Positions 1,794 through 53,734 of a stretch of DNA of 64,000 nt are shown piece by piece; position 1 is the first letter of the stretch; every line of letters starts with the position of its first letter. Both the position numbers and the translations under genes were made by a program. Source of the stretch: an uncultured Bacilli bacterium (GTDB taxonomy: Bacteria > Bacillota_I > Bacilli_A > RF39 > UBA660); NCBI GenBank assembly GCA_944358535.1, contig CALVRH010000002.1:27840-91839 (forward strand), given 5' to 3'. The notes below the pieces were generated by a model, which was not told the origin of the DNA, searched no databases, and saw only the letters and a list, made by a program, of their open reading frames with translations.

Positions 1794-2089
1794 TAGAATA
1801 GACCTGGCATTCCTTTAGTATATTTTCCCATTTTTTGTTCTGTTTCATTATCTATTTGGTGATTGGCGTCATTTATCGCAACTAAAATCATGTCTTGTAG
1901 CATTTCTATGTCATCTTTGTCTAGCTTTTCAGCGTCAATTTTTACTTCTACTACTTCTTTAGTCCCTTTAACTTTAACTGTTACGAGAGATGATTTACCT
2001 TCAAAAGTTTTTTCATCTATTTCTTTTTTTTCTTTTAACATATCATTTTGTAATTTTTGGGCTTGTTTCATCATTGCTTGTATATTCAT
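1793..2089 (-). CDS. ybaB: nucleoid-associated protein YbaB/EbfC
   Basis: 98 aa, starts MMKQAQKLQ and ends MPGLF. Conserved dnaX-ybaB-recR context. Confidence 0.88.
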   Translation of the reverse strand: MNIQAMMKQAQKLQNDMLKEKKEIDEKTFEGKSSLVTVKVKGTKEVVEVKIDAEKLDKDDIEMLQDMILVAINDANHQIDNETEQKMGKYTKGMPGLF

Positions 2090-2107
2090 TTTATTTCCTT
2101 CTTTCTA

Positions 2108-3865
2108 TTAATTGTATTCTATTATATCTTCAAACATTGATTCAATATTGTTTTTTGAATCATCTTCTTTAAAGATATCTTCTAATTTAAATTGTTCTTC
2201 TTTATAAATAAATGGTCTTAATTTATGATTAAAATCATTTTTAATTATTTCCCATTCATCTAAATTAGTTGCAATTAAATTATATTTTTTATTTAAAATT
2301 TTTTCAATAGTTTCTTCGAGAATTGGTAAATTTTCATTAAATAAGTCAGATAATCTATTTGTTTTAAAAACAAATATTAAATTTTCATCACTTGCAGCTT
2401 TTAAGGTACCATCTAAAATAATAGATGCTGAATGACTATATTCTGGGTCTAGTAATAAATCATTTAATAGTTCTAATGACGGGGTGATGTTTCTAACTTC
2501 TTGTTTGCTAAATTTAGCAAGCGTATTATCAATTCTAATTTGTTTTATTTTTTCAATATTATTTTTTAAGTTTTTGTTGATTTTTGGAATTTTTGGAGGT
2601 GTTTTAACTAATTCTTGAGTTGGTTTGTCGATTTCAACATTTTTTTTGTTTGGTTTTTGTTCGTTATTTTCGTTTTTATCATTAGAGTTTTCCACATTTT
2701 TTATTTGATTTTGTGGATAACTAACTATTTTTACTGAATTTTCATAATTTTTTTGTTCTAAACGTGCTTGTTCTGTGTTTTTTTCCACTATTTGTTGTTT
2801 TTTTTCAGAAATTATTTTAATAAGAGCTAATTCAAATAGTAATTTACTATTTGTATTATTTTTCATTTCAAAAGAGTATTTATTTAGTGTTTCAATGATT
2901 GTAAAAAGTTGATCTATATTAATTTTTGAAGAAATATTTTTATAAGTTTCAATATTTTTAGTATTTTCTTTAAAATAATTAGGTGCTTCTATAAATAAAA
3001 TAGTATTTCTTATAAATTCAATAAATTCTTCAATTAATTTAACAAAATCTTTTCCTTTATCATTATAGTTATCAATTTTTTTTAATATTTGATCTAATTT
3101 ATTATCTATTATGTTTTCTAATAGTTCACTTAGGTCTTCTTCGGTTAAAGTTCCGTTAATGTCATGAATATCATTTATGGTTATTTTTCCTTCGGTATAA
3201 GCTCTAGCTTGGTCAAGCATTCCGACAGAATCTCTCATTCCACCATCAGATAATTTTGCAATTTCATATAAGGCATTTTGATCAATATCTATTTCTTCTT
3301 TTTTGGCAATTTTACTAAGGTTTTCCACAATTGCATCATTGGTTATTTTTTTAAAATCTAATCTTTGACATCTAGATAGAATTGTTTCTAATACTTTGTG
3401 TGGATCTGTGGTGGCTAGAATAAATATTACATGAGCAGGGGGTTCTTCTAATGTTTTTAATAGGGCATTAAAGGCTCCTTGAGTAAGCATATGTACTTCA
3501 TCTATGATGTAAACTTTATATTTTCCATAAGCTGGTAATAAATTTATTTTATTTCTTAATTCTCTTATTTCATCGACACCATTATTACTAGCAGCATCAA
3601 TTTCAATAATATCGCTATTGTTTTCTTCTAAACAACTTACACATTTTCCACATGGCTTGCAATCTACGGGATGTTCACAGTTAATTATTTTAGCAAAGAT
3701 TTTGGCGATGCTGGTTTTACCAGTTCCTCTTGGACCAGCAAATAGGTAAGCATGGTTTATTTGATTATTTAGTATTGAGTTTTTTATAATTTTTACGATG
3801 ACATCTTGTCCACAGACATCATCGAGGGTTTTTGGTCTGTATTTTCTATATAATGCTTGATACAT
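2108..3865 (-). CDS. dnaX: DNA polymerase III subunit tau (gamma/tau)
   Basis: 585 aa with Walker A GPRGTGKTS, zinc module CGKCVSC, Walker B IIDEVHML and sensor SRCQRLDF, followed by a Lys/Asn-rich linker and C-terminal domain. Confidence 0.93.
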   Translation of the reverse strand: MYQALYRKYRPKTLDDVCGQDVIVKIIKNSILNNQINHAYLFAGPRGTGKTSIAKIFAKIINCEHPVDCKPCGKCVSCLEENNSDIIEIDAASNNGVDEIRELRNKINLLPAYGKYKVYIIDEVHMLTQGAFNALLKTLEEPPAHVIFILATTDPHKVLETILSRCQRLDFKKITNDAIVENLSKIAKKEEIDIDQNALYEIAKLSDGGMRDSVGMLDQARAYTEGKITINDIHDINGTLTEEDLSELLENIIDNKLDQILKKIDNYNDKGKDFVKLIEEFIEFIRNTILFIEAPNYFKENTKNIETYKNISSKINIDQLFTIIETLNKYSFEMKNNTNSKLLFELALIKIISEKKQQIVEKNTEQARLEQKNYENSVKIVSYPQNQIKNVENSNDKNENNEQKPNKKNVEIDKPTQELVKTPPKIPKINKNLKNNIEKIKQIRIDNTLAKFSKQEVRNITPSLELLNDLLLDPEYSHSASIILDGTLKAASDENLIFVFKTNRLSDLFNENLPILEETIEKILNKKYNLIATNLDEWEIIKNDFNHKLRPFIYKEEQFKLEDIFKEDDSKNNIESMFEDIIEYN

Positions 3866-3942
3866 CTTATCACCTCTATCTGTTTTATTATATCATATTT
3901 ATCCACAAAAAAAGGAAATAAGTTAGTGTATTTTTTGTTTAG

Positions 3943-38094: not shown

Positions 38095-39180
<1,086 letters not shown>

Positions 39181-39188
39181 TTAAGATT

Positions 39189-39710
39189 ATGAAAAAGGTT
39201 AGTATATTATTTTTCGGGTTAATTTTATTGTTTGTTGGTTGTTCAAATAAAGAAGAAGTTAAAACGGAAGATTTATCTTTAAAAGAAATTGAAAAAACTT
39301 TAAAAGAAAATGAGAATTCTATAAAAGAGTTATTACAAGAGAATAAAGAATTAGAACAAAAAGTTGAAAATTTAAATAAAGAGAATAGCCAACTTAATGA
39401 AAAAATTTCTTTGTTAGAAAAAAGTGATGAATCAATTAATGATGATATTAATAAAAAATATCAAGAATTAAAAAACAGTAATACTAATAGTACAAAAGTT
39501 GTATCTACTAATAATTATACTATTTCTAAAAATCAATTAATTGGAAATTGGAAATATTTAAATAATAAAAATGAAATAAGTTTTACTAATAATAATGTTG
39601 AAGTGTATGGAAATTGGATTATATATAATGGATATCAAGCTGTTTATTATATGTATAAAGATGGTAAGTTATATATTACAGATGATGGCGTTGTAATGTT
39701 GAAAAAATAA
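39189..39710 (+). CDS. lipoprotein with coiled-coil region
   Basis: Lipobox LFVGC, then heptad-like KELEQKVENLNKENSQLNEKISLLEK. Confidence 0.6.
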   Translation: MKKVSILFFGLILLFVGCSNKEEVKTEDLSLKEIEKTLKENENSIKELLQENKELEQKVENLNKENSQLNEKISLLEKSDESINDDINKKYQELKNSNTNSTKVVSTNNYTISKNQLIGNWKYLNNKNEISFTNNNVEVYGNWIIYNGYQAVYYMYKDGKLYITDDGVVMLKK

Positions 39711-39765
39711 AAATATTTTTCTAATAAATGTGGTAAAATAATATTATTTCGAGGTGAAAAATAAA

Positions 39766-40209
39766 ATGGATAAATTAGATAGATTTATTAAAGCACAGGA
39801 AAATACATATTATATAGCTTTAAATGAAATAAAGAATGGTAGAAAGAGGTCACATTGGATGTGGTATATTTTTCCACAGATAAAAGGTCTTGGTATGAGT
39901 GATGCTTCTAGATTTTATGGAATAGATGGTGTTATAGAGGCTAGAGCATATTTGGATAATGAAATATTAGGCGCTAGATTACGTGAAATAACAGGTGAAC
40001 TTTTAAAACTTAATGAAAATAATCCTTTTGATATTTTTGGAACAATTGATACGATTAAGTTAAAATCTTGTATGACTTTATTTAATTATGTTTCTGATGA
40101 AGATATTTTTATGGATGTTTTAGAAAAATTTTATAATGGAGAGATAGATGATAAAACAATTTTTCTTTGTGAAAAAGGGAAAAGTTTAACATATAAGAAT
40201 AAAAAATAA
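39766..40209 (+). CDS. DUF1810-family protein
   Basis: [40 protein letters not shown] is typical of DUF1810. Confidence 0.6.
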
Positions 40210-40241
40210 AAGATGACATTATTATAGTGAGGAGGAATTTT

Positions 40242-40517
40242 GTGTTCGATTTAGTATCTAAATTTGATCCGAGTGGTGATCAACCACAGGCAATAGATGA
40301 ACTTGTTAAAGGAGTAGAGGAAGGAAAAAAATTCCAAGTATTATTGGGGGCAACGGGTACTGGTAAGACTTTTACGATAGCTAATGTTATTCAAAAAACT
40401 CAAAAGCCAACGCTTGTTTTAGCTCATAATAAGACACTAGCTGGACAGTTATATGGAGAACTCAAAGAGCTCTTCCCAAATAATCACGTGTGCTATTTCG
40501 TTTCTTATTATGATTAA
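40242..40517 (+). pseudogene. uvrB: uvrB 5' stub 1 (codons 1-91, ends at the element junction)
   Basis: GTG start after GAGGAGG. The 91 codons match the N-terminus of the intact UvrB at 51785 almost exactly and include Walker A GATGTGKT. The stop is created at the junction TATTATGATTA-A. Confidence 0.9.
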
Positions 40518-40569
40518 AATAAAAAAACGTTGAAAAATAAGGTTTTTTGATGTTATTAAATCTATAAAA

Positions 40570-41784
40570 ATGTACAAAAAAATACCAAATTCAGAAGTTC
40601 CTAAATTTAAAGCTACATATACTGATACAATAAGTGTTTATATTGTGCCATCTGACATTGCTGTTGCTATTGAAAATTTGAATGAAAGAGATATAGATTC
40701 TAGGGAATTGGAAAAGCGAATCTCTGATATAAAAAATGAATTGGCATTTTTTTCTGAATTAAATACTAATTGTTTTGATTATATTTTAGTTAATGATTAT
40801 AATATTTATAGTGTAAAAGAATTTAATGATTTTATTTCCAAGACGTTAAATATTAATATTAATAAAGATTTACAAGATAATGATTTTTTGAATTATATTC
40901 CATCTGATATAAAAAAAGAAGTAGATGAATTTGTTACAAAGGCGAAAAAGTCAATTCTATATACTTCATTTGATGGTGACGATATGCATTATTTAAATGA
41001 TATATGTAATGATGTGATAAATAGAGAAGAAATACCACTAAATCCAGAAGCAGCTTTAGGTTATTATGTATCCACTGTAACTCTTGGTGGTACAAAACAA
41101 AAAGTGATGGCAGATTGTTTAACTTTAGAAATGTTATCTGATAAATTGTATGTTTATCGAAATGATGATGTAGATATATCTGAAGGAATTATTGCCGAAT
41201 TGATACTTTGGAATATTATTAAAAATCAAGGCTTTTCTTTTATACATGATGTTAGAAGATTAGAAAATCCTAAAGATGATATTTTAAGTGGAAGTGAACT
41301 TAGCCAATGGATTAGCAGTCAAGATTCTGTGTTGAATCAAGAACTGTTTCACAATTTATTAAATAGTTATATGAAACAAAATCATGAATCAGTTTATATT
41401 ATTGCGAATTTTAAAAATTTTAAACACATTGATTGGGCAAGAGCATATTGTTATGATAGTGACTTATGTCCTATAAGTCCTCAAAACATTCTACCTTTTT
41501 CATTATATAAGAATGATGAAAACAATTATTTAGAGTCTAGATTAAATTTACTAGACAGAGTGAATCAAGTATTTCTATTTATTGATAGATTTAATGAGAA
41601 AGAGGAAATAAAAAATTTAGATAAGTTTTCTTTAGCAGAGTTATATTATTTAAAGGAATATTGCCCTAATAAAATGTTTACTATAATTGGTTGGAATCAA
41701 GCTAATGTTCCAAAATATGACAAAGGTAAAAAATGGTCGTTGACAAGTAAGGAAGATATTAAGGTTAGAAGGTTGGTAAAATAG
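40570..41784 (+). CDS. multidomain protein: guanylate-kinase C-terminal-like segment plus two nucleoside 2-deoxyribosyltransferase/DUF4406-like modules
   Basis: The first ~95 aa resemble the lid/C-terminal part of Gmk (VYIVPSD...FDYILVNDYNIYSVKEF) without a P-loop. Two repeats follow the pattern ILYTSF..IPLNPE..SDKLYVY..SEGIIAEL and VYIIANF..PISPQ..VFLFID..SLAELYY. No clear SD. Confidence 0.4.
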   Translation: MYKKIPNSEVPKFKATYTDTISVYIVPSDIAVAIENLNERDIDSRELEKRISDIKNELAFFSELNTNCFDYILVNDYNIYSVKEFNDFISKTLNININKDLQDNDFLNYIPSDIKKEVDEFVTKAKKSILYTSFDGDDMHYLNDICNDVINREEIPLNPEAALGYYVSTVTLGGTKQKVMADCLTLEMLSDKLYVYRNDDVDISEGIIAELILWNIIKNQGFSFIHDVRRLENPKDDILSGSELSQWISSQDSVLNQELFHNLLNSYMKQNHESVYIIANFKNFKHIDWARAYCYDSDLCPISPQNILPFSLYKNDENNYLESRLNLLDRVNQVFLFIDRFNEKEEIKNLDKFSLAELYYLKEYCPNKMFTIIGWNQANVPKYDKGKKWSLTSKEDIKVRRLVK

Positions 41785-41820
41785 TTTTTTCATGTTATAA
41801 TCAAATATAGGTGTTTAAAT

Positions 41821-42594
41821 ATGAAAATAATAAATAATGATGAAAAAATTAATAATGTGTTAAAAGTTTTTTTACCAACAGTAGAACAAGATTATAGTAT
41901 TTTAAAAGGTAATTTGTTAAAAGAAGCTGAAAAAAGTTTTATTTATGATAATCCTAATGCTTTTGTGATAGGTTTAATATCTGATCAATCGGTTAAAGCA
42001 GAGTTGGCGTGGAGTTTACCTTATAATTTATATAAGAGATTGGGTACTTTTAATTTTAAAAATATAGTACAAAACTTTGATGTTGAGTCTTTAGAAAAAG
42101 TTATCAAAGAAAAGCCTGCATTACATAGGTATCCAAATAGAATGGCGAATTATATATTTTTTGCAATGAAGAAAATATTGGAAGATTATAATAATGATGC
42201 ACAAAAAATTTGGAAAAATCAACAGGCTAGTGTTATTGTGAAAAGACTAGAAGAATTTAAAGGAATTAGTCATAAAAAAGCTTCTCTAGGAACATTAATT
42301 TTAATTCGTGATTTAGGAGTAGATATTGAAGATAAACAAAATATTGATATTGCTTATGATGTACATATTCGACGAATCTTTTTAAGAATGGGTTTGGTTG
42401 AAAAAGATACACAGGAAGATATTATAAATAAAGCAAAGCAAATTAATCCTAAATTTCCTGGCGAATTGACTACTTCATTTTGGGCTATTGGTAGAAAATA
42501 CTGTTTTGCAAATAATCCGAGTTGTGAAGCGTGTCCGTTAAATCATTATTGTAGAGAGTATAAATTGAAAACAACTATGAAAGTGGGTGCGTAA
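41821..42594 (+). CDS. HhH-GPD superfamily (endonuclease III-like) DNA glycosylase homologue with Fe-S cluster loop
   Basis: HhH FKGISHKKASLGTLILIRDLGV, Asp-containing YDVHIRRIFLRMGL (cf. VDTHVxR) and Cys loop CFANNPSCEACPLNHYC. Confidence 0.55.
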   Translation: MKIINNDEKINNVLKVFLPTVEQDYSILKGNLLKEAEKSFIYDNPNAFVIGLISDQSVKAELAWSLPYNLYKRLGTFNFKNIVQNFDVESLEKVIKEKPALHRYPNRMANYIFFAMKKILEDYNNDAQKIWKNQQASVIVKRLEEFKGISHKKASLGTLILIRDLGVDIEDKQNIDIAYDVHIRRIFLRMGLVEKDTQEDIINKAKQINPKFPGELTTSFWAIGRKYCFANNPSCEACPLNHYCREYKLKTTMKVGA

Positions 42595-43174
42595 TTTGAA
42601 ATTAATATTAGCTTCTTCGTCTAAAATGAGAAAAGAAATATTACAAAAGGTTGGTTTGAAGTTTACAGTAATTAGTAGTGATGTTGATGAGCAAACGAGT
42701 GCTAATACAAATGAAGAATATTTGATTAATTTATCTAAATTAAAAGCAAATAAAATTGCTTCATCTTTATCTGAAGGTGTAGTTATTGGGGCTGATTCTA
42801 TGATATGTTTTAATGGAAAAAGAATTGGAAAACCTAAAACTAAAGAAGAAGCAAGTAGAATTTTAAAAGAATTATCTGGGAAAGTTAATTATGCTTTAAC
42901 CGGAGTTACTATTTTGGATTTATATACTGGTAAAAGCGTGTGCTTTTGTGAAAAAACGAAAGTTTATTTTGATGAATTGTCTGATGAGGAAATAGAATGG
43001 TATATAAATAATGAGGAACATATTTTAGAACGTGCAGGATATTCGTTGGCTGGAAAAACAGCAGTGTTTATTCCTAGAATAGATGGAGATTATTATAATG
43101 TTTTGGGTATGCCTATATGTAGAGTTTATAAGGAATTAAAAAAACTTGGTTATAATTTGTCTGATTTCGAGTAA
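42587..43174 (+). CDS. maf: Maf-family nucleoside triphosphate pyrophosphatase
   Basis: LILASSSKMRKEILQKVGLKF..SDVDE, GADSM, YNVLGMP. Start is either GTG 42587 or TTG 42595. Confidence 0.8.
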   Translation: MRNLKLILASSSKMRKEILQKVGLKFTVISSDVDEQTSANTNEEYLINLSKLKANKIASSLSEGVVIGADSMICFNGKRIGKPKTKEEASRILKELSGKVNYALTGVTILDLYTGKSVCFCEKTKVYFDELSDEEIEWYINNEEHILERAGYSLAGKTAVFIPRIDGDYYNVLGMPICRVYKELKKLGYNLSDFE

Positions 43175-43453
43175 AAATATTATTATTGAAAGAAAATAAT
43201 AATATTTTTTTATAAATATTTTTAATTGTAGTGATGTATTGTTGTTTTATACTATTATAAATGATAAAATATCTAATAGCTTTAAAATTAGTGTTATTTG
43301 CTTCAAGTAATATTATTTAGTTATTTTATATGATGTTTAGTAAATTTGTGACTTTTTCGCGTTGCGAAGTTAAAAATAGTCAAAATTTGAGTAAAAAAAT
43401 TAGTGACTTTTTGAAAAAATATGCTGATAATTGTCATAATAAGGAGGGATTTT

Positions 43454-43729
43454 GTGTTCGATTTAGTATCTAAATTTGATCCTAGTGGTGATCAACCAGA
43501 GGCAATAGATGAACTTGTTAAAGGAGTAGAGGAAGGCAAGAAATTCCAAGTATTACTGGGCGCAACGGGTACTGGTAAGACTTTTACGATAGCTAATGTT
43601 ATTCAAAAAACGCAAAAACCAACACTTGTTTTAGCTCACAATAAGACACTAGCTGGACAGTTATATGGGGAACTTAAGGAACTCTTCCCAAATAATCATG
43701 TTTGTTATTTCGTCAGTTATTATGATTAA
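43454..43729 (+). pseudogene. uvrB: uvrB 5' stub 2 (codons 1-91)
   Basis: GTG start after AAGGAGGG. About 93-95% nucleotide identity by eye to the other two copies, with mostly synonymous changes. Same junction stop. Confidence 0.9.
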
Positions 43730-43984
43730 AATAAAAAAAACGTTGAAAAATAAGGCTTTTTAATGTTATTTAATTCATAAAAATGTATAAAATAGTACTA
43801 AAAAAACGAAATAATATAAGCTGAAAACATAGAATTTGTGACCTTTATGCGTTGCAAAATGGAATTACGAATTTTATTAATATGAAACTATAATTTTTTA
43901 TAACATATTTTTGCTTGTGTACATAGCCATTTTATTTTATAAGATGGCTAATTTTTTTTATGGAAAGGAGGGTGAAAAATATTA

Positions 43985-44083
43985 ATGAATGGAAAAATTA
44001 TTGCTGTTGTAAATCATAAATGTGATGTTGGTAAAACTATAATAGTCTTTAACTTATGGGGTAACTTTAACAAATTCTGGTAA
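43985..44083 (+). pseudogene. ParA/Soj-type ATPase relic (32 codons)
   Basis: MNGKIIAVVNHKCDVGKTIIVFNL corresponds to the deviant Walker A KIIAVxNxKGGVGKTT and is then truncated. Good SD. Confidence 0.5.
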
Positions 44084-44178
44084 TTAAGTAAAATCTATAA
44101 ATTATAAAATGAATAGTAAAGATATATGGATATAGATCAGTGTAAATAACCTAAAGTTATTTTTTTTGTGTATAAAGG

Positions 44179-44207
44179 TTGCAAAACTGTTAAAAAAATG
44201 ATATTAT
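44179..44207 (+). promoter_or_regulatory. possible promoter of the E2 operon
   Basis: TTGCAA, 17 bp, TATTAT, 34 bp upstream of the GTG at 44241. Confidence 0.35.
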
Positions 44208-44240
44208 TATTAATAAAATTTTTGTGTTGGGAGTGATTTT

Positions 44241-45650
44241 GTGCCATTATTTTCTATTATAGTACCAACTTGTAATGTAGAAAAATATATAGCTGATTGT
44301 TTAAATAGTATTGTAAAACAAAATTTTAAGGATTATGAGGTAATAATTGTCGATGATGGTTCGACTGATAATACTTTGAATATTGTTACTGGATTTTGTG
44401 ATAAATATGATAATTTTTATTTATTTAAGGAAGAACATAATGGTGTTTCTACTGCACGAAATATTGGATTAAATAAATCTAAAGGACACTATATAATGTT
44501 TTTAGATGGTGATGATTTTATTGATTCTAATAGTTTACTTTATATTTCTAAGATTATTACTGCCACTCATAAAGATGCTTATGTATCAAATTTTAAAACA
44601 GTTAATAGTGATGACTGTGATAGACAGTTATATGATCGTCAAATAGATTATAAAATGATTGATGAAAGAAGAATGTCTGCTGTATTGGATTATATAAAGA
44701 TAAGTAAGATAATTTTTACAGTTTGGAGATTTATAGTAAAAAGAGATTTAATCTTAAAATATAAATTATTTTTTATTAACGGTATTGTTCACGAAGATGA
44801 AGAATGGACTGTAAAAATGTTATGTCATATTAAAAATTTATATTATATAGATATAAAATACTATAATTATAGATTACATAATAATTCTATAACTACTTCA
44901 TTAAATTTATTCAATGTTTTTTGTTATTATGACATTGTTACAATATTGACAAAATATGCTATTTTAGAAAAAGTAAAATATAAAAAAGATTTTTATTTGT
45001 TTTATGCAAAAAAATTATCAAAATATGCGACTAAATTGATTTCGAGTGTTTATAATGATAATGCGAAAAAAGTAAAAAAGAAAAATATAATAATTTTTGG
45101 CGGTAGTAGATGTGGTAAAAGTACATTAGCTAGAAGAATTTCTAGAAAATTTAATTATAATTTAATATCTTTAGATTTTTTAATTACAGCCTTTCAATAT
45201 GGAATGCCGAATTTAAACATTAATCATTTGCGGAGAGATGAAGTTATGTTAAATGATATTTTTAGTTTTATGTATAGTTATATTAGAGCTTTAAATCATG
45301 ATAGTAAAAATTCTTATGATGTTAATTATGTGATAGAAGGATGTTATTTAAAATTAGATGATTTTGTTGAGAAGTTTAACATTAATAATTTTATGATAAT
45401 TGTTTTGGGATATGATGATAGTGCTACTCAATTATTTAATGATATAAGAACTCATGATACTATAAAAGATTGGACAAAAGATTTATCTGATGAAGATTTA
45501 TTAAAGTATTGTAATAGGGTAATTGAAGATTGTAAAAAATTAAAAGAATATTGTTTAAAAAGAAAAATTCCATATTTTGATATGTCTGGTGATAGAAACG
45601 AAAAAATTTTTTCAATAATAGATAAGGTAAGGATAGAAAATGGTTTATAA
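44241..45650 (+). CDS. family-2 glycosyltransferase fused to a P-loop kinase-like domain
   Basis: GT-A motifs FSIIVPTCN, VDDGSTDNT, LDGDD, HEDEEW. The C-terminal ~200 aa has Walker A FGGSRCGKSTLA. Confidence 0.65.
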   Translation: MPLFSIIVPTCNVEKYIADCLNSIVKQNFKDYEVIIVDDGSTDNTLNIVTGFCDKYDNFYLFKEEHNGVSTARNIGLNKSKGHYIMFLDGDDFIDSNSLLYISKIITATHKDAYVSNFKTVNSDDCDRQLYDRQIDYKMIDERRMSAVLDYIKISKIIFTVWRFIVKRDLILKYKLFFINGIVHEDEEWTVKMLCHIKNLYYIDIKYYNYRLHNNSITTSLNLFNVFCYYDIVTILTKYAILEKVKYKKDFYLFYAKKLSKYATKLISSVYNDNAKKVKKKNIIIFGGSRCGKSTLARRISRKFNYNLISLDFLITAFQYGMPNLNINHLRRDEVMLNDIFSFMYSYIRALNHDSKNSYDVNYVIEGCYLKLDDFVEKFNINNFMIIVLGYDDSATQLFNDIRTHDTIKDWTKDLSDEDLLKYCNRVIEDCKKLKEYCLKRKIPYFDMSGDRNEKIFSIIDKVRIENGL

Positions 45651-46737
45651 TTATGAAACAATAAATAAGTATTTAGATGAAATAAAAAAAACAGAAGGCA
45701 TATCATTACAAACAATAAATTATCAACATAATTCAATAAATGGAATTTTATTTAAATGTAATAAAAAGAAATTTTTTAAAATTATTTCTAAAGATGAAGC
45801 AATGAGAGAAAGAAATTCTATCAAAATATGTAGTTCAATTTTTCCAGTTATGCCACAAACTGATGTGTATTGCTTTAATGAAAATTTATGCCTAGTTTTG
45901 TATGACTATGATATAAATGTAGGGTTAAATAAAGGACTTTTAAATGATTATTTTGTTATTAATGATTTTAAGAAAACTTTTGATGAAGCACCCATCAATA
46001 AACTTCTCTGTTTTTATAAAAAAAGTTCACAGAACTCGCAAAAAATCACAAAAGCTCCAATTGATATTTTCTTTCGAGAAAGAGTGCATTCAAGATTGAA
46101 CAATTGGTATAAAAACAATAATGATTTTTATAAAACCGTGATTGTTAATGGGGAAAATAGTGTTACTACAGAAAAAATTATTAAAGAGACTATTTCTTAT
46201 TTTCAGTTAGAAAAAGCACATGATGGCTTTATCACTCAAGGTGATCATAATGTATTAAATTTGTCAATTACTTCATATTTTTTTGATGTTAGTTCGGCTG
46301 GTTATAATTATGCTATTGGAGAATTTGCAATGTGTTTTATATCTATTTTGTTTTTTGATCAATATATTTGTCCAAAATATCATGAAGAGTCTTATAAAAA
46401 TCATGAAAAAATATTTGAAACTTTAAATAATTATAAGCCCAAAATAAATTATAATCTATATAAGGAAAACATTGTGATTAATTGTGAATTTAGAATAAGT
46501 AAAATTAGAAGGGCATATATTTTAAAATTTCTTGATATTGTAAAAGATTTTGATATATATGATGATTTGATTTATTTTGTTATAATGAGATTGCTTTGTA
46601 TATTTAACATTAATACTTTTGATAGTGATGACTATTATTATATATTGTTTTTAATACATTGGTTTTATTTAAAATTGTCTAATTTGAATTATAATAAGTT
46701 AAAAAATTTGATACTAAAAATGAATCTTTTGGATTGA
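45640..46737 (+). CDS. APH/choline-kinase-like phosphotransferase
   Basis: Putative catalytic loop ITQGDHNVLN (HxDxxxxN-like), followed by FFDVSSAG (metal-binding Asp). N-lobe Lys/Glu candidates FFKIISKDEAMRE. Confidence 0.45.
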   Translation: MVYNYETINKYLDEIKKTEGISLQTINYQHNSINGILFKCNKKKFFKIISKDEAMRERNSIKICSSIFPVMPQTDVYCFNENLCLVLYDYDINVGLNKGLLNDYFVINDFKKTFDEAPINKLLCFYKKSSQNSQKITKAPIDIFFRERVHSRLNNWYKNNNDFYKTVIVNGENSVTTEKIIKETISYFQLEKAHDGFITQGDHNVLNLSITSYFFDVSSAGYNYAIGEFAMCFISILFFDQYICPKYHEESYKNHEKIFETLNNYKPKINYNLYKENIVINCEFRISKIRRAYILKFLDIVKDFDIYDDLIYFVIMRLLCIFNINTFDSDDYYYILFLIHWFYLKLSNLNYNKLKNLILKMNLLD

Positions 46738-46775
46738 GTTAAGTTAATTTATTGAAGAAAGGGGTCAAGTAATGT

Positions 46776-47492
46776 ATGAAAAATGATATAATTATTACAG
46801 GTGGGGCGAATGGTATAGGATTAGAATGTGCAAAATTATATAAATCTAAAGGATATAATGTTTTTGTTTTAGATATTGATAAAGTAGAAGGAAAAAAATT
46901 GTCGAAATATGGGATACATTATTATGTTTGTGATGTTTCATCCGAAGATGATGTAAATTACATTGCTAATTTAATGTTGCCGCAATTGAATCAATTAGTT
47001 GCTATTATTAATTGTGCGGCAATTCAAATTGAAGAAGATTTTGAATGTTATAATCAAAAAAAATGGCAAAAAGTTATAAATACAAATTATTTTGGTGTAT
47101 GTAATGTAATTCATGCTTTTTTTAAATTTTTGTCTGAAGGTTCTACAATTTTGAATTTAATTTCTGTTCATTCAGTTAAACCGCGAACAAAAAAATATGC
47201 TTATGATTCTTCAAAGAGTGCAATTGAAATACTAACAAAAGAACTTGCATTAGAATTTGCTCCCCATAAAATCACTGTTAATGCATTATCATTTGGTGCG
47301 GTGGAGACAGACATGAATAATACTTGGCTAACTCATAGTGAACAAAGAGAAATAGCTAGAGCTAAAGTACCGTTAAAAATTGTTTTTAATCCTGTGCAAA
47401 TTGCAAATTTTACATATGTGATAATAAAAGTATTTTCTAAATATACAACAGGTTCAGTTTTTGTTATTGATGGTGGAAGAAGTTTAACTTAA
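46776..47492 (+). CDS. short-chain dehydrogenase/reductase
   Basis: TGGANGIG cofactor motif, NCAA, catalytic YDSSK. Confidence 0.8.
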   Translation: MKNDIIITGGANGIGLECAKLYKSKGYNVFVLDIDKVEGKKLSKYGIHYYVCDVSSEDDVNYIANLMLPQLNQLVAIINCAAIQIEEDFECYNQKKWQKVINTNYFGVCNVIHAFFKFLSEGSTILNLISVHSVKPRTKKYAYDSSKSAIEILTKELALEFAPHKITVNALSFGAVETDMNNTWLTHSEQREIARAKVPLKIVFNPVQIANFTYVIIKVFSKYTTGSVFVIDGGRSLT

Positions 47493-47521
47493 ATAACTGT
47501 ATTATGAAAGGAAGATGTTTT

Positions 47522-47974
47522 ATGAATATTAGAGTACGTGGAATTGTTGTTGAAAATAATCATTTATTATTGATAAAAAGGGTGCGAATGGAAAATAACA
47601 AAGAAAATATTTATTATGTTTTTCCAGGTGGTGGTTTAGAAACTGGCGAAACTTTGGAGGAAGGAGTTAAAAGAGAAGTTTTAGAAGAATTGGGAATTGA
47701 TGTAGAGGTGCAAGATATGAGATACCTTGAAAATTTTAAGCATACTGATACTTATTTCTTTAATTGTAAGTGGATTAGTGGAAATTTAGGTACAGGTAAA
47801 GGACCTGAATTTACCTCAAAAGAATATGAAAATAGAGGATTATATATTCCTATGGCTGTACCTATTTCCGAGCTTTCTAAATTAAATGTCGTACCTAGTG
47901 AGGTCAGAGATTTAGTTGTAAATGATTATAAAAATAAAGAAAAAGGTGATTCTGGTTGTATCAAATTTCGTTAA
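47522..47974 (+). CDS. Nudix hydrolase
   Basis: Complete Nudix box GGGLETGETLEEGVKREVLEELGI. Confidence 0.8.
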   Translation: MNIRVRGIVVENNHLLLIKRVRMENNKENIYYVFPGGGLETGETLEEGVKREVLEELGIDVEVQDMRYLENFKHTDTYFFNCKWISGNLGTGKGPEFTSKEYENRGLYIPMAVPISELSKLNVVPSEVRDLVVNDYKNKEKGDSGCIKFR

Positions 47975-49164
47975 ATGGTTTAGATGGCTCTGGTAAAACA
48001 ACTCAATACAGTTTGTTAAAAAAGAATTTTTACTATGCTTATTTTTCTAATGATATTTCAAAATATAATGTTTTTCCTAATTTAAAGGGTGACAATTTTT
48101 TTAGATGGTGGTTTTTAGAAAGTTCATTGGATGAGTTTTGTGATTCAATTTATAAAGGAATCAAATTAAGAAATGATGATTCTTTGAATCAACAAAAAAA
48201 AATAGTTTTTAATGATAAAGGTATTTTTACTTTTGATTGTAGAATTCTAGCTAATTTTTTATTAAGGGGTTATTCAAATGAAAATATTAATCAGTTTATA
48301 AGAGAATATAAATCAAAATATGAAATTGAAAATGAGGATTTGTCTGTTTTTTTGAATGTTTCTGATACTTCTAAATTAAATTCTAGAAGAAAAAATAGAA
48401 ATGTTGATTCTCGGAATTCTTATGATGATTATTATGAACAATATCAAAACAAGTTGTTAGAAGTGACTAATGGTTTATTATATCAGAGTGATATAAAATT
48501 AATTAATGCGAACGATAAAATTGAAAATGTCTTTAAAAATTTATTCAACTTGTTTATTGGTAATGAACAACAATTTATATTTGTTTCTGGAGTATCTGAA
48601 TCAGGTAAAAGTACAGCTTCAGAATATTTGAGTATGAAGTTACCTAATGCGATACATGTTAAAATGCGAGATATTTCTGATGAATTATATCGAAATTCAA
48701 ATAGTAAAGAAGAAAAATATATATGGATGCGTGAACAAGAAAAGTATTCACCTTATAAATTTTGGTTTGATTTTTTGATGTTAACATCTGCTTATACAAA
48801 AAATAATCAGATCATAATAATGGATACATTGCATGGAATATCAGCTGCACAGTATATGAAAAAAATATTAGGTGATCGTTTATCTATATTATATATTGAT
48901 GCTTTATTTAATAATAGGGTTAATAGAGAATATAATAAATTAAAGTTAAAAGGTGAAAATTGTAGTATTTCAGATATTGCGAAAAGAACCGAAAAAAAAG
49001 ATATTGCTAAAGCAAAATTTGGACTATTGTCAATAAAGAAATTACCATATACTTATATTTTAAATAATGATGATGATTTTTATAGTTTTGAAAAAAAATT
49101 AGATGTTTTTGCTAATTATATTTTAGGAGAACAGGAAAAAAATAAATGTATAGTGAAAAAATAA
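47956..49164 (+). CDS. two-domain P-loop kinase (thymidylate-kinase-like N-domain plus a second nucleotide-kinase-like domain)
   Basis: LNGLDGSGKTTQ (Tmk-type GxDGxGKTT) and a second Walker A VSGVSESGKSTA. TTG start follows AAAAGGTGA. Confidence 0.5.
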   Translation: MYQISLNGLDGSGKTTQYSLLKKNFYYAYFSNDISKYNVFPNLKGDNFFRWWFLESSLDEFCDSIYKGIKLRNDDSLNQQKKIVFNDKGIFTFDCRILANFLLRGYSNENINQFIREYKSKYEIENEDLSVFLNVSDTSKLNSRRKNRNVDSRNSYDDYYEQYQNKLLEVTNGLLYQSDIKLINANDKIENVFKNLFNLFIGNEQQFIFVSGVSESGKSTASEYLSMKLPNAIHVKMRDISDELYRNSNSKEEKYIWMREQEKYSPYKFWFDFLMLTSAYTKNNQIIIMDTLHGISAAQYMKKILGDRLSILYIDALFNNRVNREYNKLKLKGENCSISDIAKRTEKKDIAKAKFGLLSIKKLPYTYILNNDDDFYSFEKKLDVFANYILGEQEKNKCIVKK

Positions 49165-50051
49165 AATATTCATTTATAATTCCAACATATAATTCTGAAA
49201 AAACTATATTTAAATGTTTGAATAGTGTTTTAAATCAAGAAAATTGTGATTATGAGGTTTTGATTATTGATGATGGTTCGACCGATAATACTTTGAATAT
49301 TGTTACTGAACTTTCAAAAAAAAATGATAAAATCAAAATAAAAAAGAATAGTCATAAGGGAATTAGTGAAATTAGAAATATTGGTATATGTAATAGTATT
49401 GGTGATTATATAATTTTTGTGGATTCTGATGATTATGTTAATCCTGAATTACTAAGTGTCTTAAATAAATATGATGATGACGTTATTAAATTTTCTGTTT
49501 TTTGTAGTAATGGTGGTGATAGATTTGTTCAGCCTAAATTTATATCAATTACTGGTATGGAATGTTTAAAATTGTTTTGTAATAGTGAAAATATTTTTGC
49601 TACACCATGGGGTTATGCTTTTAGGAGGAGTTTGTTTTTAAATAATAAATTATTTTTTTTAAAAGGAAAAACGCATGAGGATTTTGGCTTAATACCTTTG
49701 GTGTTAATTTATGCTAAGACTGTTAGTAGTATAGAATATGTTGGATATAATTATATTAAACGTGTTGGAAGTATTACTCAGGAAACTGAGTATGAAAAAG
49801 AAATATCTAGAATGTATGATTTTATTGATCAATTTTGCTTTGTAATTGGTAGTCTTAATAATATGGATATTGAACAATCATACAAAAAAATTTATAATGA
49901 TTATTTTATAAATAGATTATATATAAAAATTAATAATTTTAAACGTAATATAAAAGAATATTATGATTATGATGAGGTGGTAAAAAAATGTTGCAAAAAA
50001 ATCAATACGTTTTTGATAAAACAAAAGTTGAATTACCGGAAATTTACATAA
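49146..50051 (+). CDS. family-2 glycosyltransferase
   Basis: FIIPTYN, IDDGSTDNT, VDSDD, HEDFG. Confidence 0.75.
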   Translation: MYSEKIKYSFIIPTYNSEKTIFKCLNSVLNQENCDYEVLIIDDGSTDNTLNIVTELSKKNDKIKIKKNSHKGISEIRNIGICNSIGDYIIFVDSDDYVNPELLSVLNKYDDDVIKFSVFCSNGGDRFVQPKFISITGMECLKLFCNSENIFATPWGYAFRRSLFLNNKLFFLKGKTHEDFGLIPLVLIYAKTVSSIEYVGYNYIKRVGSITQETEYEKEISRMYDFIDQFCFVIGSLNNMDIEQSYKKIYNDYFINRLYIKINNFKRNIKEYYDYDEVVKKCCKKINTFLIKQKLNYRKFT

Positions 50052-51172
50052 AAAAACTTAATGAGGTTGTTGAGCAAGCTATTAAAATTTTTAAAAATAA
50101 TTTAAAAAGTATAATTTTAGGTGGTTCTGGCGGGAAGGCTGAAATTATTCCATATTGGTCTGATTTAGACATATATATTGTATTAGATGAATATAATTTT
50201 TCTCAGGTGCAAACATTTATGAAGGTTGATAATAAATATGATGAAATTCATGTTGGTGTAACAATATATACAATGGATGAAGTGGTAAATAATTTGATTG
50301 ATGGAAAAACAAAAGTTATGATTTATGAAAAGGAACAATTAAATGTTGATCCAACCCTTTATGGAAAAAATTATTTTTTAAAACAAAAGTATACTGACAT
50401 ACAACTTAATGATATTAATAATTTGCCTAGTATTGTTCATTCTTGTAGAAGAAATTGCATTGATTTAGAAAATAATGAAGTGACCTTATTAAAGTCGCAT
50501 GTAAAAAAGTTTATTGTTATGTTAAAATGTATTTTAAATATTAATGGAATATTTTCTTATGGATATCAAAAGGTTATGAACGATTTTTACAATTTGTGTG
50601 AAGAAAAGAAATTGTTGAATAAAAGGATACTTAATTTTAAAATTAAAGAGGTTACTTCAAAAAATTATAATTTGAGTGAAGCAAAAGAAGATTTTTTAAA
50701 TATAAATAAATTTGTTTTTGAAAACTTATTAGAACTAATAAATAAAAAAATTAATAAGAGTGAGCAGGTTATATCTTGTATGGGTGTTGTTTCTTGTAAA
50801 AAAAACAATGACATATATGTTGCTCTATTACGGGATGTTAATAATTGTTGGGTTATTCCAAAAGGACATTTGGAAAAAAACGAAACATTTATAGAAGCGG
50901 CAATTAGAGAGGTAAAAGAAGAAACTAATGTAGATATCACCACTCATGATTTTGTAGATAAGGTTGGAGAATATAAATATTGTTCTAATCTTGAAGGAAC
51001 TATGAAATTAATAAAAATTTATTTATTTAAAGTTGATGAATTTCAACCGATTGTTCCTTCGGTTAAAGAAAGTTTTGTGGATGGAAAGTGGTTATTATTG
51101 AGAGAAGCCATAGAAAAAAGTACATATCAGGAGCAAAAATCTGCTTTAGAAAAAATAGAATTGATGTTATAA
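49988..51172 (+). CDS. Pol-beta-superfamily nucleotidyltransferase fused to a Nudix domain
   Basis: N-terminal GGSGGKAEIIPYWSDLDIYIV (GS-x-DxD NTase signature). C-terminal Nudix box KGHLEKNETFIEAAIREVKEETNV. 64-nt overlap with the preceding gene. Confidence 0.6.
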   Translation: MLQKNQYVFDKTKVELPEIYIKKLNEVVEQAIKIFKNNLKSIILGGSGGKAEIIPYWSDLDIYIVLDEYNFSQVQTFMKVDNKYDEIHVGVTIYTMDEVVNNLIDGKTKVMIYEKEQLNVDPTLYGKNYFLKQKYTDIQLNDINNLPSIVHSCRRNCIDLENNEVTLLKSHVKKFIVMLKCILNINGIFSYGYQKVMNDFYNLCEEKKLLNKRILNFKIKEVTSKNYNLSEAKEDFLNINKFVFENLLELINKKINKSEQVISCMGVVSCKKNNDIYVALLRDVNNCWVIPKGHLEKNETFIEAAIREVKEETNVDITTHDFVDKVGEYKYCSNLEGTMKLIKIYLFKVDEFQPIVPSVKESFVDGKWLLLREAIEKSTYQEQKSALEKIELML

Positions 51173-51216
51173 AAATAAATTGAATCCCGAAATTTGAATA
51201 AAGAAAAAAATGTCAA

Positions 51217-51256
51217 AAAGCTATGATAAATAATAAAAGTATTATAGCTTTTTTTG
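51217..51256 (+). terminator. terminator of the E2 operon
   Basis: AAAGCTATGATA-loop-TATTATAGCTTT followed by a T-run. Confidence 0.55.
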
Positions 51257-51311
51257 TGATAAGATATCATTGAAGAGTGATAATTTGAAAAATAATTATA
51301 TTGTTCATTGA

Positions 51312-51561
51312 TTTAGACATATACGCAACAATGCTATAAAATAAAAGTTTTTGTGTAAAAACTGTTTCTCTTATGTTAGGACACAGTTCTACAATAATTA
51401 CAACAGATGTTTATTATGATAAGAGTTGTTTAGTAATTGATTTAACTGAGGAATTAAATAGGTATATAGATAAGGTAAAACCGGTTAATAAAATTAACAA
51501 AGATGTAGTTGATGTTGCAACGAATTTTAATAAAATATTTAAAGAATTTCAGTTAGTATGA
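51312..51561 (+). pseudogene. tyrosine recombinase (integrase) C-terminal relic
   Basis: VKTVSLMLGHSSTIITTDVYYD matches the integrase C-terminal box (LGHSSxxxTxxxYxH, catalytic Tyr). An upstream FRHIRNNAI (cf. LRHTxAT) lies in another frame, and the rest of the gene is absent. Confidence 0.6.
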
Positions 51562-51784
51562 CATGAGTAGTTGTGTTAATTTATTATAAATGATAAAATA
51601 CATAATAGCTTGAAATTATTGGTGTTATTTAAGTTTATTTAATGCTATTTAATGTTGTTTTGTGTTATTTAGTAAGTTTGTGACTTTTATGCGTTGCAAG
51701 ATTAAAATTTTGAAAAAAACGGTGGATATTTGTATTTTTGCAACGAATTTAATGGTTAGTAGTAGTCATAGTGAGGTGATAAAA

Positions 51785-53734
51785 ATGTTCGATTTAGTAT
51801 CTAAATTTGATCCGAGTGGTGATCAACCACAGGCAATAGATGAACTTGTTAAAGGAGTAGAAGAAGGAAAAAAATTTCAAGTATTACTAGGGGCAACGGG
51901 TACTGGTAAGACTTTTACGATAGCTAATGTTATTCAAAAAACGCAAAAACCGACACTTGTTTTAGCTCACAATAAGACACTAGCTGGACAGTTATATGGG
52001 GAACTCAAAGAGCTTTTCCCAAATAATCACGTGTGTTATTTTGTCTCATATTATGATTATTATCAGCCAGAAGCTTATGTGGCTAAAACTGATACTTATA
52101 TAGAAAAAGATGCTTCAATTAATGATGAAATTGATGAACTTAGACATTATGCGACTGCATCACTTTTAGCTCATAAAGATGTAATTGTGGTGGCCTCTGT
52201 TTCTTGTATATATGGTATTGGAGAGATTGAAGATTATAAGAAAAAAGTTTTATTTTTAAGTGTTGGAGAGACTGTAGATAGAGATCAAGTCATTGAAAAA
52301 TTGATTGAAATGCTTTATGAGAGAAATAATATTGATTTAAAACGTGGTACTTTTAGAGTCCATGGAGATGTTTTAGAAATTGTTCCTATTGGGCAGCATG
52401 CTCATGGGATTAGAGTAGAGTTTTTTGGTGATGAAATTGATAGAATTAGTGAGTTTGATTTAGTTACTGGAACTTTAGTAAACGATAAAAAAACTTATAC
52501 ATTATTTCCCGCAAGTCATTTTGTTACTAATGATGAAAAATTGAAGATTGCTATTGAAAATATTAAGAAAGAATTAGAAGGGCAATTAGAAAAGTTTCAA
52601 AGTGAAAATAAGTTACTTGAGTATCAAAGATTAAAAGAAAGAACTAATTATGATATTGAAATGCTTTCGGAAACAGGTTCTTGTAGGGGAGTAGAAAATT
52701 ATTCAGCACCACTCGCTTTAAGAAAACCAGGAGAGATGCCAACAACTTTAATTGATTTCTTTGGTGATGATTTTTTGCTTGTTGTCGATGAATCTCATGT
52801 TACATTACCACAAGTTAGAGCTATGTACAATGGAGATAGAATGCGTAAGCAAGCTTTGGTTGATTATGGTTTTAGACTTCCTAGTGCACTTGATAATAGG
52901 CCTTTAAAGTTTGAAGAATTTGAGGGTAAAATTAAACAAGCAATATTTGTTTCTGCAACACCAGGAGATTATGAGATGGAAAAAGTTCATAATAAGGTTA
53001 CTGAACAAATTATAAGACCAACAGGTTTATTAGATCCAAAAATTGAGGTTAAACCGACTAAAAATCAAATAGATGATTTAGTTAGTCAAATACATAAACA
53101 AATAGAGAAAAATGAAAGAACTTTAATTACAACTTTGACAATTAGAATGGCTGAAGAATTATCGGTTTATTTGAAAAATTTAGATATTAAAGTTGCTTAT
53201 TTACACAATGAGATTAAGACTTTAGAGAGAATGCAGATAATTCATGATTTGAGGGTTGGTAAATATGATGTGGTTGTTGGAATTAATTTACTTCGTGAGG
53301 GAATAGATGTTCCAGAAGTTAGTTTGATTGCAATAATGGATGCGGATAAACAAGGATTTTTACGAAGTGAACGTAGTTTAATTCAAACAATTGGTAGAGC
53401 TGCTCGTAATGCGAATGGTAGAGTTATCATGTATGCGGATGAGATAAGTTCAGCTATGGATGCAGCTATAAAGGAAACTAATAGAAGAAGAAGTATTCAA
53501 GAAGCATATAATGAAAAACATGGTATTATTCCAAAAACAATTATTAAAGAAATACGTGAAGTTATCTCTAATAAGTTTGAAATTAAAGAGAAAAAAGAGA
53601 AAAAGATGACTAAGAAAGACAAAGAAAAATTGATGTTTGATTTAGAACATGAAATGAAAGAGGCAGCTAAGAATCTTGATTTTGAAAGAGCTATGGAGCT
53701 ACGTGATGCATTATTTGAGATGCAAAGTGAATAA
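51785..53734 (+). CDS. uvrB: excinuclease ABC subunit B
   Basis: 649 aa with [16 protein letters not shown], helicase motifs and a C-terminal UVR domain [16 protein letters not shown] at 51785 follows GTGAGGTGA; the ORF-track N-terminal extension is non-homologous. Confidence 0.95.

Follow-up and report, generated by a model that had tools for sequence, protein, structure and literature searches.

The locus described here raises a simple question: Why does the 5' end of uvrB, a core DNA repair gene, occur three times in a row when just one of these copies continues into a full-length gene? It lies in a window of 64,000 nt from an uncultured Bacilli bacterium (contig CALVRH010000002.1 of assembly GCA_944358535.1), and all coordinates below refer to this whole window unless they are given with a locus; L-numbers denote loci in other assemblies or genomes, and P-numbers denote proteins. 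An earlier sequence-only reading of the window had proposed that two related integrative elements inserted one after the other into the beginning of uvrB and that each of them brought along a surrogate for the part of the gene that it cut off. Our analysis largely supports this interpretation: The arrangement is very probably due to two non-autonomous integrative elements, here called E1 and E2, that sit in tandem at one core sequence inside uvrB and come from a family with a uvrB-site-specific tyrosine integrase. The features that carry the argument are the following:

39754-40209, + strand: DUF1810 gene, the native chromosomal left neighbour of uvrB (Pfam PF08837, E = 7e-53).
40242-40517, + strand: uvrB 5' copy 1, 91 codons plus TAA, read as the displaced resident fragment and attL of E1 (repeat search and alignment).
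40506-40516, + strand: 11-bp core TATTATGATTA, left junction of E1 (alignment).
40517-43728, + strand: E1, 3.2 kb, apparently inserted at the 11-bp core.
43454-43729, + strand: uvrB 5' copy 2, read as the surrogate at the right end of E1 that was later displaced by E2, with a stop at the junction (alignment).
43718-43728, + strand: 11-bp core TATTATGATTA between E1 and E2 (alignment).
43729-52059, + strand: E2, 8.3 kb, apparently inserted at the 11-bp core.
51295-51561, + strand: tyrosine-integrase relic, the C-terminal ~80-90 codons with a degenerate box II region and an in-frame stop (match to the integrase Int of L113).
51785-53734, + strand: working uvrB, 649 aa, codons 1-88 read as the E2 surrogate and the remainder as chromosomal (Pfam; comparison with L132).
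52049-52059, + strand: 11-bp core TATTATGATTA in the working gene, read as attR of E2 and made up of the Tyr89-Tyr90-Asp91 codons and the first two bases of Tyr92.

A repeat search found a direct repeat of 300 nt at 40218-40517, 43430-43729, and 51761-52060 (the other copies match copy 1 at 89-92%, and the copies are spaced by 3212 and 8331 nt) that contains uvrB codons 1-91 starting at 40242, 43454, and 51785, exactly where the sequence-only reading had placed them. The alignment of all three copies is common from the ribosome-binding region through codon 91, and copies 1 and 2 part from copy 3 immediately 3' of the core. Past the core, copies 1 and 2 have a common arm of 74 nt (40516-40589 versus 43729-43802, 85% identity), and the TAA that ends both of them arises at the junction itself. 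Over approximately 250 nt upstream, copies 2 and 3 are homologous to each other (43234-43286 versus 51563-51615, 81%; 43308-43375 versus 51640-51707, 76%), and copy 3 is the start of an open reading frame (ORF) of 649 aa in which all UvrB Pfam domains are present. The common end point with its arm, the homology upstream of copies 2 and 3, the single full-length gene, and the element sizes of about 3.2 and 8.3 kb had all been described beforehand and were recovered here. The three copies diverge from each other by 6-11% (copies 2 and 3 by 7%), with synonymous differences in 14-18 codons per pair, and their 91-aa translations show a single residue difference (Q to E in copy 2) besides the start codon, which is GTG in copies 1 and 2 and ATG in copy 3. 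Because these differences are almost wholly synonymous, all three copies seem to have evolved as working coding sequence. Written as a consensus, the core is TAYTATGATTA at uvrB codons 89-92, which we take to encode conserved tyrosines at the base of the UvrB beta-hairpin.

Uninterrupted versions of the site, with DUF1810 directly followed by an intact uvrB as the sequence-only reading would predict, are found in close relatives. Same-species contigs were collected through DUF1810 protein homologues (99% protein identity), whereas an exact search for the DUF1810 product of the window, taken as an ORF that begins with GTG, gave no match. Four of these contigs (L132, L146, L147, and L148) show DUF1810, intact uvrB, a holin-like gene, and lgt in this order, and the same empty site is present in a sister lineage (L137 and L138; DUF1810 at 89%). 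The 120 nt upstream of copy 1 equal the native DUF1810-uvrB junction of L132 save for 3 mismatches. Another same-species contig, L145, is occupied differently: DUF1810 and a 93-aa uvrB fragment are followed there by ParA, ParB, SpaA, sortase, SSB, PcfM, DUF3991/Toprim, MobC, and relaxase genes, and the same conjugative-type element lies at the uvrB site of L136 in the sister lineage. These elements, which resemble ICEs (integrative and conjugative elements) and have another representative in L090, are known from their left 10 kb.

E1 and E2 also occur apart from each other. An arm-sequence scan led to L084, where a uvrB 5' fragment and arm are followed by genes for a CYTH protein, a 506-aa guanylate-kinase (GK) fusion, an HhH-GPD protein, and a Maf-like protein and then by an intact uvrB. 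Over 2711 nt (window 40589-43299), the E1 cargo DNA of L084 and that of the window share 98.6% identity, compared with 77.7% for the uvrB body and 73.7% for the lgt region in the flanks. Searching with the relic protein led to L085-L092, which are composed of rsgA, a group II intron reverse transcriptase (RT), a uvrB 5' fragment, the seven E2 genes, the relic, and an intact uvrB, without E1 and without DUF1810; E2 is present in L131, too. Compared segment by segment, the window and L085 have the following identities:

Displaced left uvrB copy: 74%.
E2 left arm: 85%.
E2 cargo: 95-98%.
Integrase relic: 96%.
E2 right arm: 97%.
Surrogate uvrB copy: 87%.
uvrB body: 75-81%.
Holin-like gene: 69%.

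Overall, the elements of these hosts are 95-99% identical to those of the window and the flanks just 70-78%, which shows that E1 and E2 have moved between hosts. A stretch of 10 kb with 92% identity looked like horizontal transfer of the entire uvrB gene, a reading that was rejected because the segment-wise comparison gives just 75-81% for the uvrB body. Since the hosts of L084 and L085 are themselves around 94% identical across uvrB-lgt, one host lineage shows E1 only, E2 only, or E2 together with an ICE-type element, the latter in L090, where another uvrB fragment of 91 aa and then a conjugative-type element (ParA to relaxase) come after E2. Each element thus occurs alone in another species, so that E1 and E2 are separable units, and together with the identical core and the empty sites this supports the proposal that both of them entered at the same intragenic site.

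How could such an insertion leave a functional gene behind? In the mechanism that we propose, the circular form of an element would carry an attP composed of the right arm, ~290 nt of uvrB-type upstream sequence, uvrB codons 1-88, the core, and the left arm, in this order. Recombination with the chromosomal core would strand the resident 5' fragment as a dead end, closed by the TAA at the junction, and would join the surrogate 5' end of the element to the chromosomal uvrB body. The gene would thus stay intact but chimeric, because its surrogate 5' end is fused to a chromosomal body.

The clearest view of the crossover comes from the 5' copies themselves, which fall into two allele groups that are ~73% identical to each other: Type A comprises both copies of L084 and the left copies of L085, L086, and L090, and type B comprises L082, all three copies of the window, and those on the E2 side in L085, L086, L092, and L090. 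In its first 60 nt, the working uvrB of L085 is 96.7% identical to the window and 68.3% to L084. Compared with host allele A, its identity is 68-77% in nt 1-180 and 95-100% from nt 301 onward (where identity to the window is ~78%), and its informative sites follow the element up to nt 261 and the host from nt 282 onward. The alleles thus switch between nt 264 and 282, and once the left junction is taken into account, the exchange falls in nt 265-275, i.e., in the 11-bp core. The N-terminus of L085 UvrB is 100% identical to window copy 3 and 82% identical to the displaced native fragment. The uvrB of the window departs from that of the empty-site strain L132 at 21 positions of nt 1-264 and at 42 of nt 660-1947, with no mismatch in nt 265-659. 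The chimeric UvrB of the sequence-only reading is demonstrated in L085 by the allele switch at the core, and in the window it is shown by the mismatch pattern against L132. Between the two E2 surrogates there are 30 synonymous and 0 nonsynonymous codon differences, which was taken as a sign of selection.

Two further observations concern the same part of the gene. The Ser88 codon (nt 262-264; window 40503, 43715, and 52046; L132 10738) varies between TCN and AGY among alleles, with TCT in copy 1, AGT in copy 2, TCA in copy 3, and AGC in L132 and L085. Among strains of the same species, the first 264 nt of uvrB are 7-8% divergent as compared to 2.5% for the remaining gene.

The likely source of the recombination activity can be traced from the relic just upstream of copy 3. 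Its match to Pfam is weak (E = 0.059), but window 51325-51558 corresponds to residues 355-432 of the intact 432-aa integrase of L113 with 79.5% identity (E = 6e-34), so that the tyrosine-integrase relic noticed by the sequence-only reading is real. DNA homology between the relic and L113 begins at 51280, and the first ~350 integrase codons are missing. The relatives found in a homology search with the relic are all short, and one of them, P0012, retains RFHDLRH...LGHSS...Y. A complete integrase of 430 aa, the first intact relative that we met, lies directly upstream of uvrB in L043, and an alignment of this protein with the relic proteins served as query for a search that gave 39 loci from species-representative genomes, mostly Lachnospiraceae and other Clostridia besides a few "Bacilli" metagenome-assembled genomes. 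In 34 of these 39 loci, uvrB is encoded directly downstream on the same strand; the other five comprise two contig ends (L098 and L109), two short partial matches (L124 and L129), and one true exception (L108, see below). An intact Int of 431-432 aa directly upstream of uvrB was seen in L113, L141, L144, L155-L157, and about 20 further loci, and the integrases that the sequence-only reading had expected next to related arms thus adjoin uvrB in many genomes. The family comprises 654 clusters at E <= 1e-30 with the domains PF14659 and PF00589 and sometimes the arm-binding domain PF14657, and it was found to span Lachnospiraceae, Oscillospirales-type, and Erysipelotrichales-like gut bacteria. Phage integrases are at most 30% identical to Int, and NCBIfam gave no curated family at its cut-off for Int or for the second recombinase described below. 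Displaced uvrB fragments that end in the same 11 bp were also found in L123 and L111 (Lachnospiraceae) and in L036 (Acutalibacteraceae).

Where the right end of these elements is intact, it forms a module of genes for a sigma70_r4-like regulator, PemK/MazF, a small ORF, an excisionase-like helix-turn-helix protein, Rec1, and Int, followed by uvrB. Rec1 is a second tyrosine recombinase of ~400 aa with 24-29% identity to Int, overlaps Int where gene calls were seen, and is encoded upstream of nearly every intact Int (L113 at 1436-3936, L141, L144, L155-L157, and most of L094-L120), and the two proteins may form a two-recombinase integration system. The identical 431-aa Int P0146 precedes uvrB in two host syntenies that differ downstream (in L155/L156 versus L157, one with uvrB, radical SAM, uvrA, holin, and lgt and the other with uvrB, holin, and lgt), and this identity in differing syntenies points to very recent transfer between hosts.

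Inside E1 and E2, the following features were annotated:

40517-40589, + strand: E1 left arm, 85% identical to the E2 arm and near-identical by eye to the L084 arm.
40570-41784, + strand: E1 cargo, 404-aa remnant of a GK-fused protein, 98% aa identity to the 506-aa protein of L084.
41821-42594, + strand: E1 cargo, HhH-GPD/EndoIII-like protein, 257 aa (Pfam PF00730; 98.4% aa identity to L084).
42587-43174, + strand: E1 cargo, Maf-like protein, 195 aa (Pfam PF02545, E = 1e-51; 99.5% aa identity to L084).
43175-43453, + strand: E1 right arm with candidate promoter and 23-nt motif (homology to the E2 right arm).
43729-43870, + strand: E2 left arm with 23-nt motif, homologous to the left arms of L082, L084, and L085 and of the ICE-type elements of L136 and L145.
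43924-43950, + strand: terminator-like hairpin followed by a T-run just inside the left end of E2, the sole such site in 39600-44300.
44241-51172, + strand: E2 cargo, seven co-oriented genes (Pfam).
51562-51784, + strand: E2 right arm with candidate promoter, 23-nt motif, and ribosome-binding site, 96.8% identical to L085.
43345-43367, 43835-43857, and 51677-51699, + strand: 23-nt motif (motif scan).

The cargo of E1 is related to nucleotides and DNA repair. Relative to L084, its left arm is cut off at 40589 by a deletion of ~1.18 kb (deletion end from blastn), and of the GK domain that is complete in the 506-aa protein of L084 the window remnant keeps a residual C-terminal match. The E1 of L084 (4786-6993) thus has an additional CYTH-domain gene and a complete GK domain, both of which the window lost in this deletion, and the deletion joined the left arm to the GK remnant, creating a new ATG inside the arm. 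The seven genes of E2 encode a glycosyltransferase family 2 (GT2) and P-loop protein of 469 aa, a 365-aa protein of unknown function, an SDR protein, a NUDIX protein, a dNK/TMK-like protein of 402 aa, a second GT2 protein of 301 aa, and a nucleotidyltransferase-NUDIX fusion of 394 aa. PADLOC identified no recognisable defence system among ten E1 and E2 cargo proteins, just weak matches of the NUDIX or kinase type, which in the E2 block are to PDC-S07, VakA, and mad8. Pfam scans of the genes of both elements detected no relaxase, coupling protein, or type IV secretion or mating genes, and no recombinase was found among the E1 genes in Pfam and NCBIfam scans. Judged by their gene content, E1 and E2 are non-autonomous remnants and not active elements.

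Other cargo can stand behind an arm of the E2 type: In L082 (1118-7940) and L144 (59-6492), it consists of a two-component system, a DUF1430/FtsX-like permease, and an ABC ATPase, with reversed orientation of the L082-type cargo within the Int-bearing element of L144. A group II intron RT (RVT_1 and GIIM domains) lies between rsgA and the displaced uvrB fragment of the type-A host in L085-L091 (579-1850), and a second RT is found within the ICE-type element of L090.

The arms tie these elements together. Left arms are homologous across E1, E2, L082, L084, L085, and the ICE-type elements of L090, L136, and L145. A 23-nt motif, TTTGTGACyTTTATGCGTTGCAA, is present once per arm and always on the + strand, absent from empty sites, and expected 0 times by chance; it recurs at the same relative positions in L082, L084, L085, L090, L113, L115, L131, L136, L141, and L144. 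The motif starts ~107 nt inside the element in the left arm and ~108 nt upstream of the surrogate start codon in the right arm, and the left-arm copy of E1 was lost with its deletion. We regard it as a candidate arm-type binding site.

For the promoter that each element was proposed to bring along, inspection by eye found promoter-like sequences in both right arms (TTGTTT-N17-TAAAAT at ~43242-43270 in E1 and TTGTGT-N17-TAAAAT at ~51571-51599 in E2), and the pattern TTGTnT-N17-TAAAAT, in which a TG stands two bases upstream of the -10 hexamer, recurs in the two right arms and upstream of each L084 copy, the native one among them. The DNA upstream of the surrogate may supply the active uvrB promoter. 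The leader of the surrogate gave no Rfam match and showed no unusual fold (z = 0.2).

Several findings weigh against parts of this interpretation. The surrogate of E1 is host-type in both of its hosts (A in L084 and B in the window) despite the 98.6% identity of the cargo, and the block of 98.6% identity ends at 43299, upstream of the surrogate. Because it matches the host in both cases, this surrogate did not simply travel along with the element. The native allele of L132 is just 92.7% identical to copy 1, which is presumed to be the resident fragment, compared with 96.7% for copy 2. A consensus promoter scan in this AT-rich DNA gave no more sites than shuffled sequences, and the same was true of a terminator scan, which found no terminator between cargo and uvrB. 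Since no terminator separates them, read-through from the co-oriented cargo into uvrB is possible. The integrase of L108 (6001-7257) has no uvrB within 6 kb downstream and may mark a secondary site or a changed specificity, and the tie of the conjugative-type element to the integrase family is formed by the shared left arm and junction. Finally, no intact integrase is encoded in the window, the present-day mobility of E1 and E2 is unproven, and sequence cannot show an excision product, a circular form, or integrase activity.

Instead of two insertions at this site, E1 and E2 may have arrived as one composite that had formed elsewhere and was co-excised across the outer att sites, a history that we consider possible though rather doubtful. 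Composites do form, as illustrated by L090 with E2 in tandem with a conjugative-type element. The exact tandem of E1 and E2 recurs on three contigs that have the window's exact UvrB, of which L153 (99.97%) and L154 (99.7%) come from different samples, and the same-species strains that were seen are either empty (L132, L146-L148) or carry the ICE (L145), with none that has E1 or E2 alone. However, E1 alone and E2 alone exist in another species as separable units, and copies 2 and 3 differ by 7%. The content of the window does not distinguish these two histories.

Insertion might also have occurred, for all or some of the elements, by homologous recombination of the Campbell type via the ~300-350 bp of uvrB 5' homology on a circle. 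This could account for a mosaic patch at nt 126-174 of the middle copy of L090, which differs there from the E2 surrogate and is thereby closer to the copies of the host type, for the drop in identity between the two E2 surrogates from 95% to 78% toward the core, and for the host-matched surrogate of E1. Nevertheless, we consider it improbable: Even in distant lineages, every left junction lies in the same 11 bp, the allele switch of L085 lies at the core and at no variable point, and a dedicated integrase family is tied to the site, while alleles A and B with just ~73% identity would be a poor substrate for homologous recombination. Homologous exchange explains reshuffling after insertion better than insertion itself, and we infer that gene conversion or homologous exchange between the flanking 5' repeats of integrated elements reshuffles the surrogate alleles, a reading that also takes in the variable Ser88 codon and the closer match of copy 2 than of copy 1 to L132.

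Besides site-specific insertion with restoration of the gene, the elements could conceivably act as a switch of uvrB by regulated gene integrity or active lysogeny, like SpyCIM1 in mutL, so that repair would depend on excision. The target is a DNA repair gene, and streptococcal islands control mutL in this manner (discussed in a passage of PMC4701971), but we view such a role here as very improbable because uvrB is intact with the elements integrated (649-aa ORF, all domains), E1 and E2 are without a working integrase, and a search for LexA/Cheo boxes found no site near any uvrB copy. That the three copies result from misassembly or from local tandem duplication without mobile DNA is a concern for an apparently metagenome-derived assembly, in which repeats can mis-join, and was to be checked according to the sequence-only reading, but it is exceedingly improbable and has no tool result in its favour, because the tandem is repeated in L153 and L154 from different samples, empty sites exist, E1 and E2 are found separately elsewhere, and the copies are 6-11% divergent with nearly all differences synonymous.

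If E1 and E2 are integrative elements of the uvrB-specific family, how did they spread? The truncation of the E2 integrase is identical in three host lineages (window, L085-type, and L131), and E1 is without integrase in two, which suggests spread after integrase loss and hence mobilisation in trans. E1 and E2 were probably moved by integrases of related elements such as the conjugative-type element of L145, L136, and L090. Cis-mobilizable elements (CIMEs) are flanked by att sites, have no recombination and transfer genes, and stand next to an ICE in a tandem array, with one att site used by both. Their site-specific accretion with ICEs of the ICESt1/ICESt3 family was reportedly worked out by Pavlovic in 2004 and Bellanger in 2011. 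E1 with arms and core on both sides but no integrase, E2 with just a relic, and the position of E2 next to an ICE-type element in L090 all resemble this situation, and trans-mobilisation through CIME-like accretion with ICE-type relatives is probably the route that E1 and E2 took. They differ from CIMEs in that their att site lies within the 5' end of a gene and comes with a long coding surrogate.

The restoration of a 5' end together with a promoter, which the sequence-only reading had called unusual, is already documented for other genes. Genomic islands at dusA replace the 5' end of this gene, and the old end marks the boundary of the island (Farrugia 2015, PMC4482086). For one of them, the integrative and mobilizable element (IME) IMEVchUSA3, it was shown experimentally that dusA receives a new promoter and an N-terminus of 35 aa (Durand 2021, PMC8409611), and SXT does likewise for prfC according to a remark in the latter paper. 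In streptococci, the 5' ends of rbgA, ftsK, and ebfC are targets of ICEs that have direct repeats of 12-54 bp (Ambroset 2016, PMC4701971).

Among these systems, the dusA islands are alike in having a one-target family of tyrosine integrases, a conserved gene whose coding 5' end is renewed, an old end as far boundary, highly diverse cargo, and some members that are mobilised by conjugative helpers. They differ in host and target (Proteobacteria and dusA versus gut Firmicutes and uvrB), and the uvrB Int is paired with a second tyrosine recombinase. The surrogate of IMEVchUSA3 comprises 35 residues with 61% identity to the native ones, whereas the uvrB elements, known here from sequence alone, carry 88-91 codons including the Walker A motif, and the surrogate protein in the window is essentially identical to the native one. 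SXT/R391 has another integrase, target, and phylum, and the window elements are decayed, non-conjugative derivatives. The streptococcal rbgA, ftsK, and ebfC ICEs share with the uvrB elements a Firmicutes host, the 5' end of a conserved gene as target, a preserved N-terminus, an upstream region that is sometimes replaced, and conjugation modules of the relaxase/MobC type, but their repeats of 12-54 bp compare to ~275-350 bp here, and uvrB is not among their listed targets. Regulated gene integrity, as for SpyCIM1-mutL or the comK prophage, differs in that uvrB is complete while the elements are integrated.

Literature searches outside the TIGER/Islander listings returned no description of uvrB as an integration target, and this target, apparently undescribed so far, seems to be widespread among gut Firmicutes. 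While the mechanism itself has precedents, the present case differs from them by the uvrB target, the much longer surrogate, a different integrase family that seems to be uncurated and is paired with a second recombinase, and a clear tandem array of non-autonomous derivatives. To specialists, the target and the breadth of the family would be noteworthy and the principle would not, and uvrB joins a short list of protein genes whose 5' end is a landing site rebuilt by the element (prfC, dusA, rbgA, and ftsK).

As a tentative and broader view, codons 89-92 of uvrB might serve a large and so far undescribed family of ICEs in gut Firmicutes, possibly with two recombinases (Rec1 and Int), and their integrase-less hitch-hikers as a dedicated attachment site. 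Their traffic, together with gene conversion, might replace codons 1-88 of uvrB and its upstream control region again and again, resulting in a hypervariable pool of alleles that ends sharply at the core, and the native uvrB promoter, once orphaned, might drive the co-oriented cargo. If this is true, the expression of nucleotide excision repair and cargo would be rewired by the element. Apart from this broader view, the findings mean that in many gut Firmicutes the N-terminal 88 residues of UvrB with the Walker A motif, and probably the upstream control region as well, are of foreign origin. In L085-type genomes, the protein segment that was imported differs from its native counterpart by 18%, so that the functional tolerance of UvrB for such chimeras could be tested. 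Knowing the target of the integrase would help to delimit ICEs, IMEs, and their remnants in gut metagenomes, and the tandem array with its integrase-less members is a clean natural example of accretion and hitch-hiking.

A separate observation concerns the neighbourhood of the locus. On the - strand at 38095-39081, the window encodes a collagen-like protein with 9-nt G-x-T repeats (36 repeat registers) and a C1q-like C-terminal match. The length of this gene product differs among strains: 328 aa (window), 280 aa (L132), 307 aa (L145), and 316-325 aa (sister lineage).

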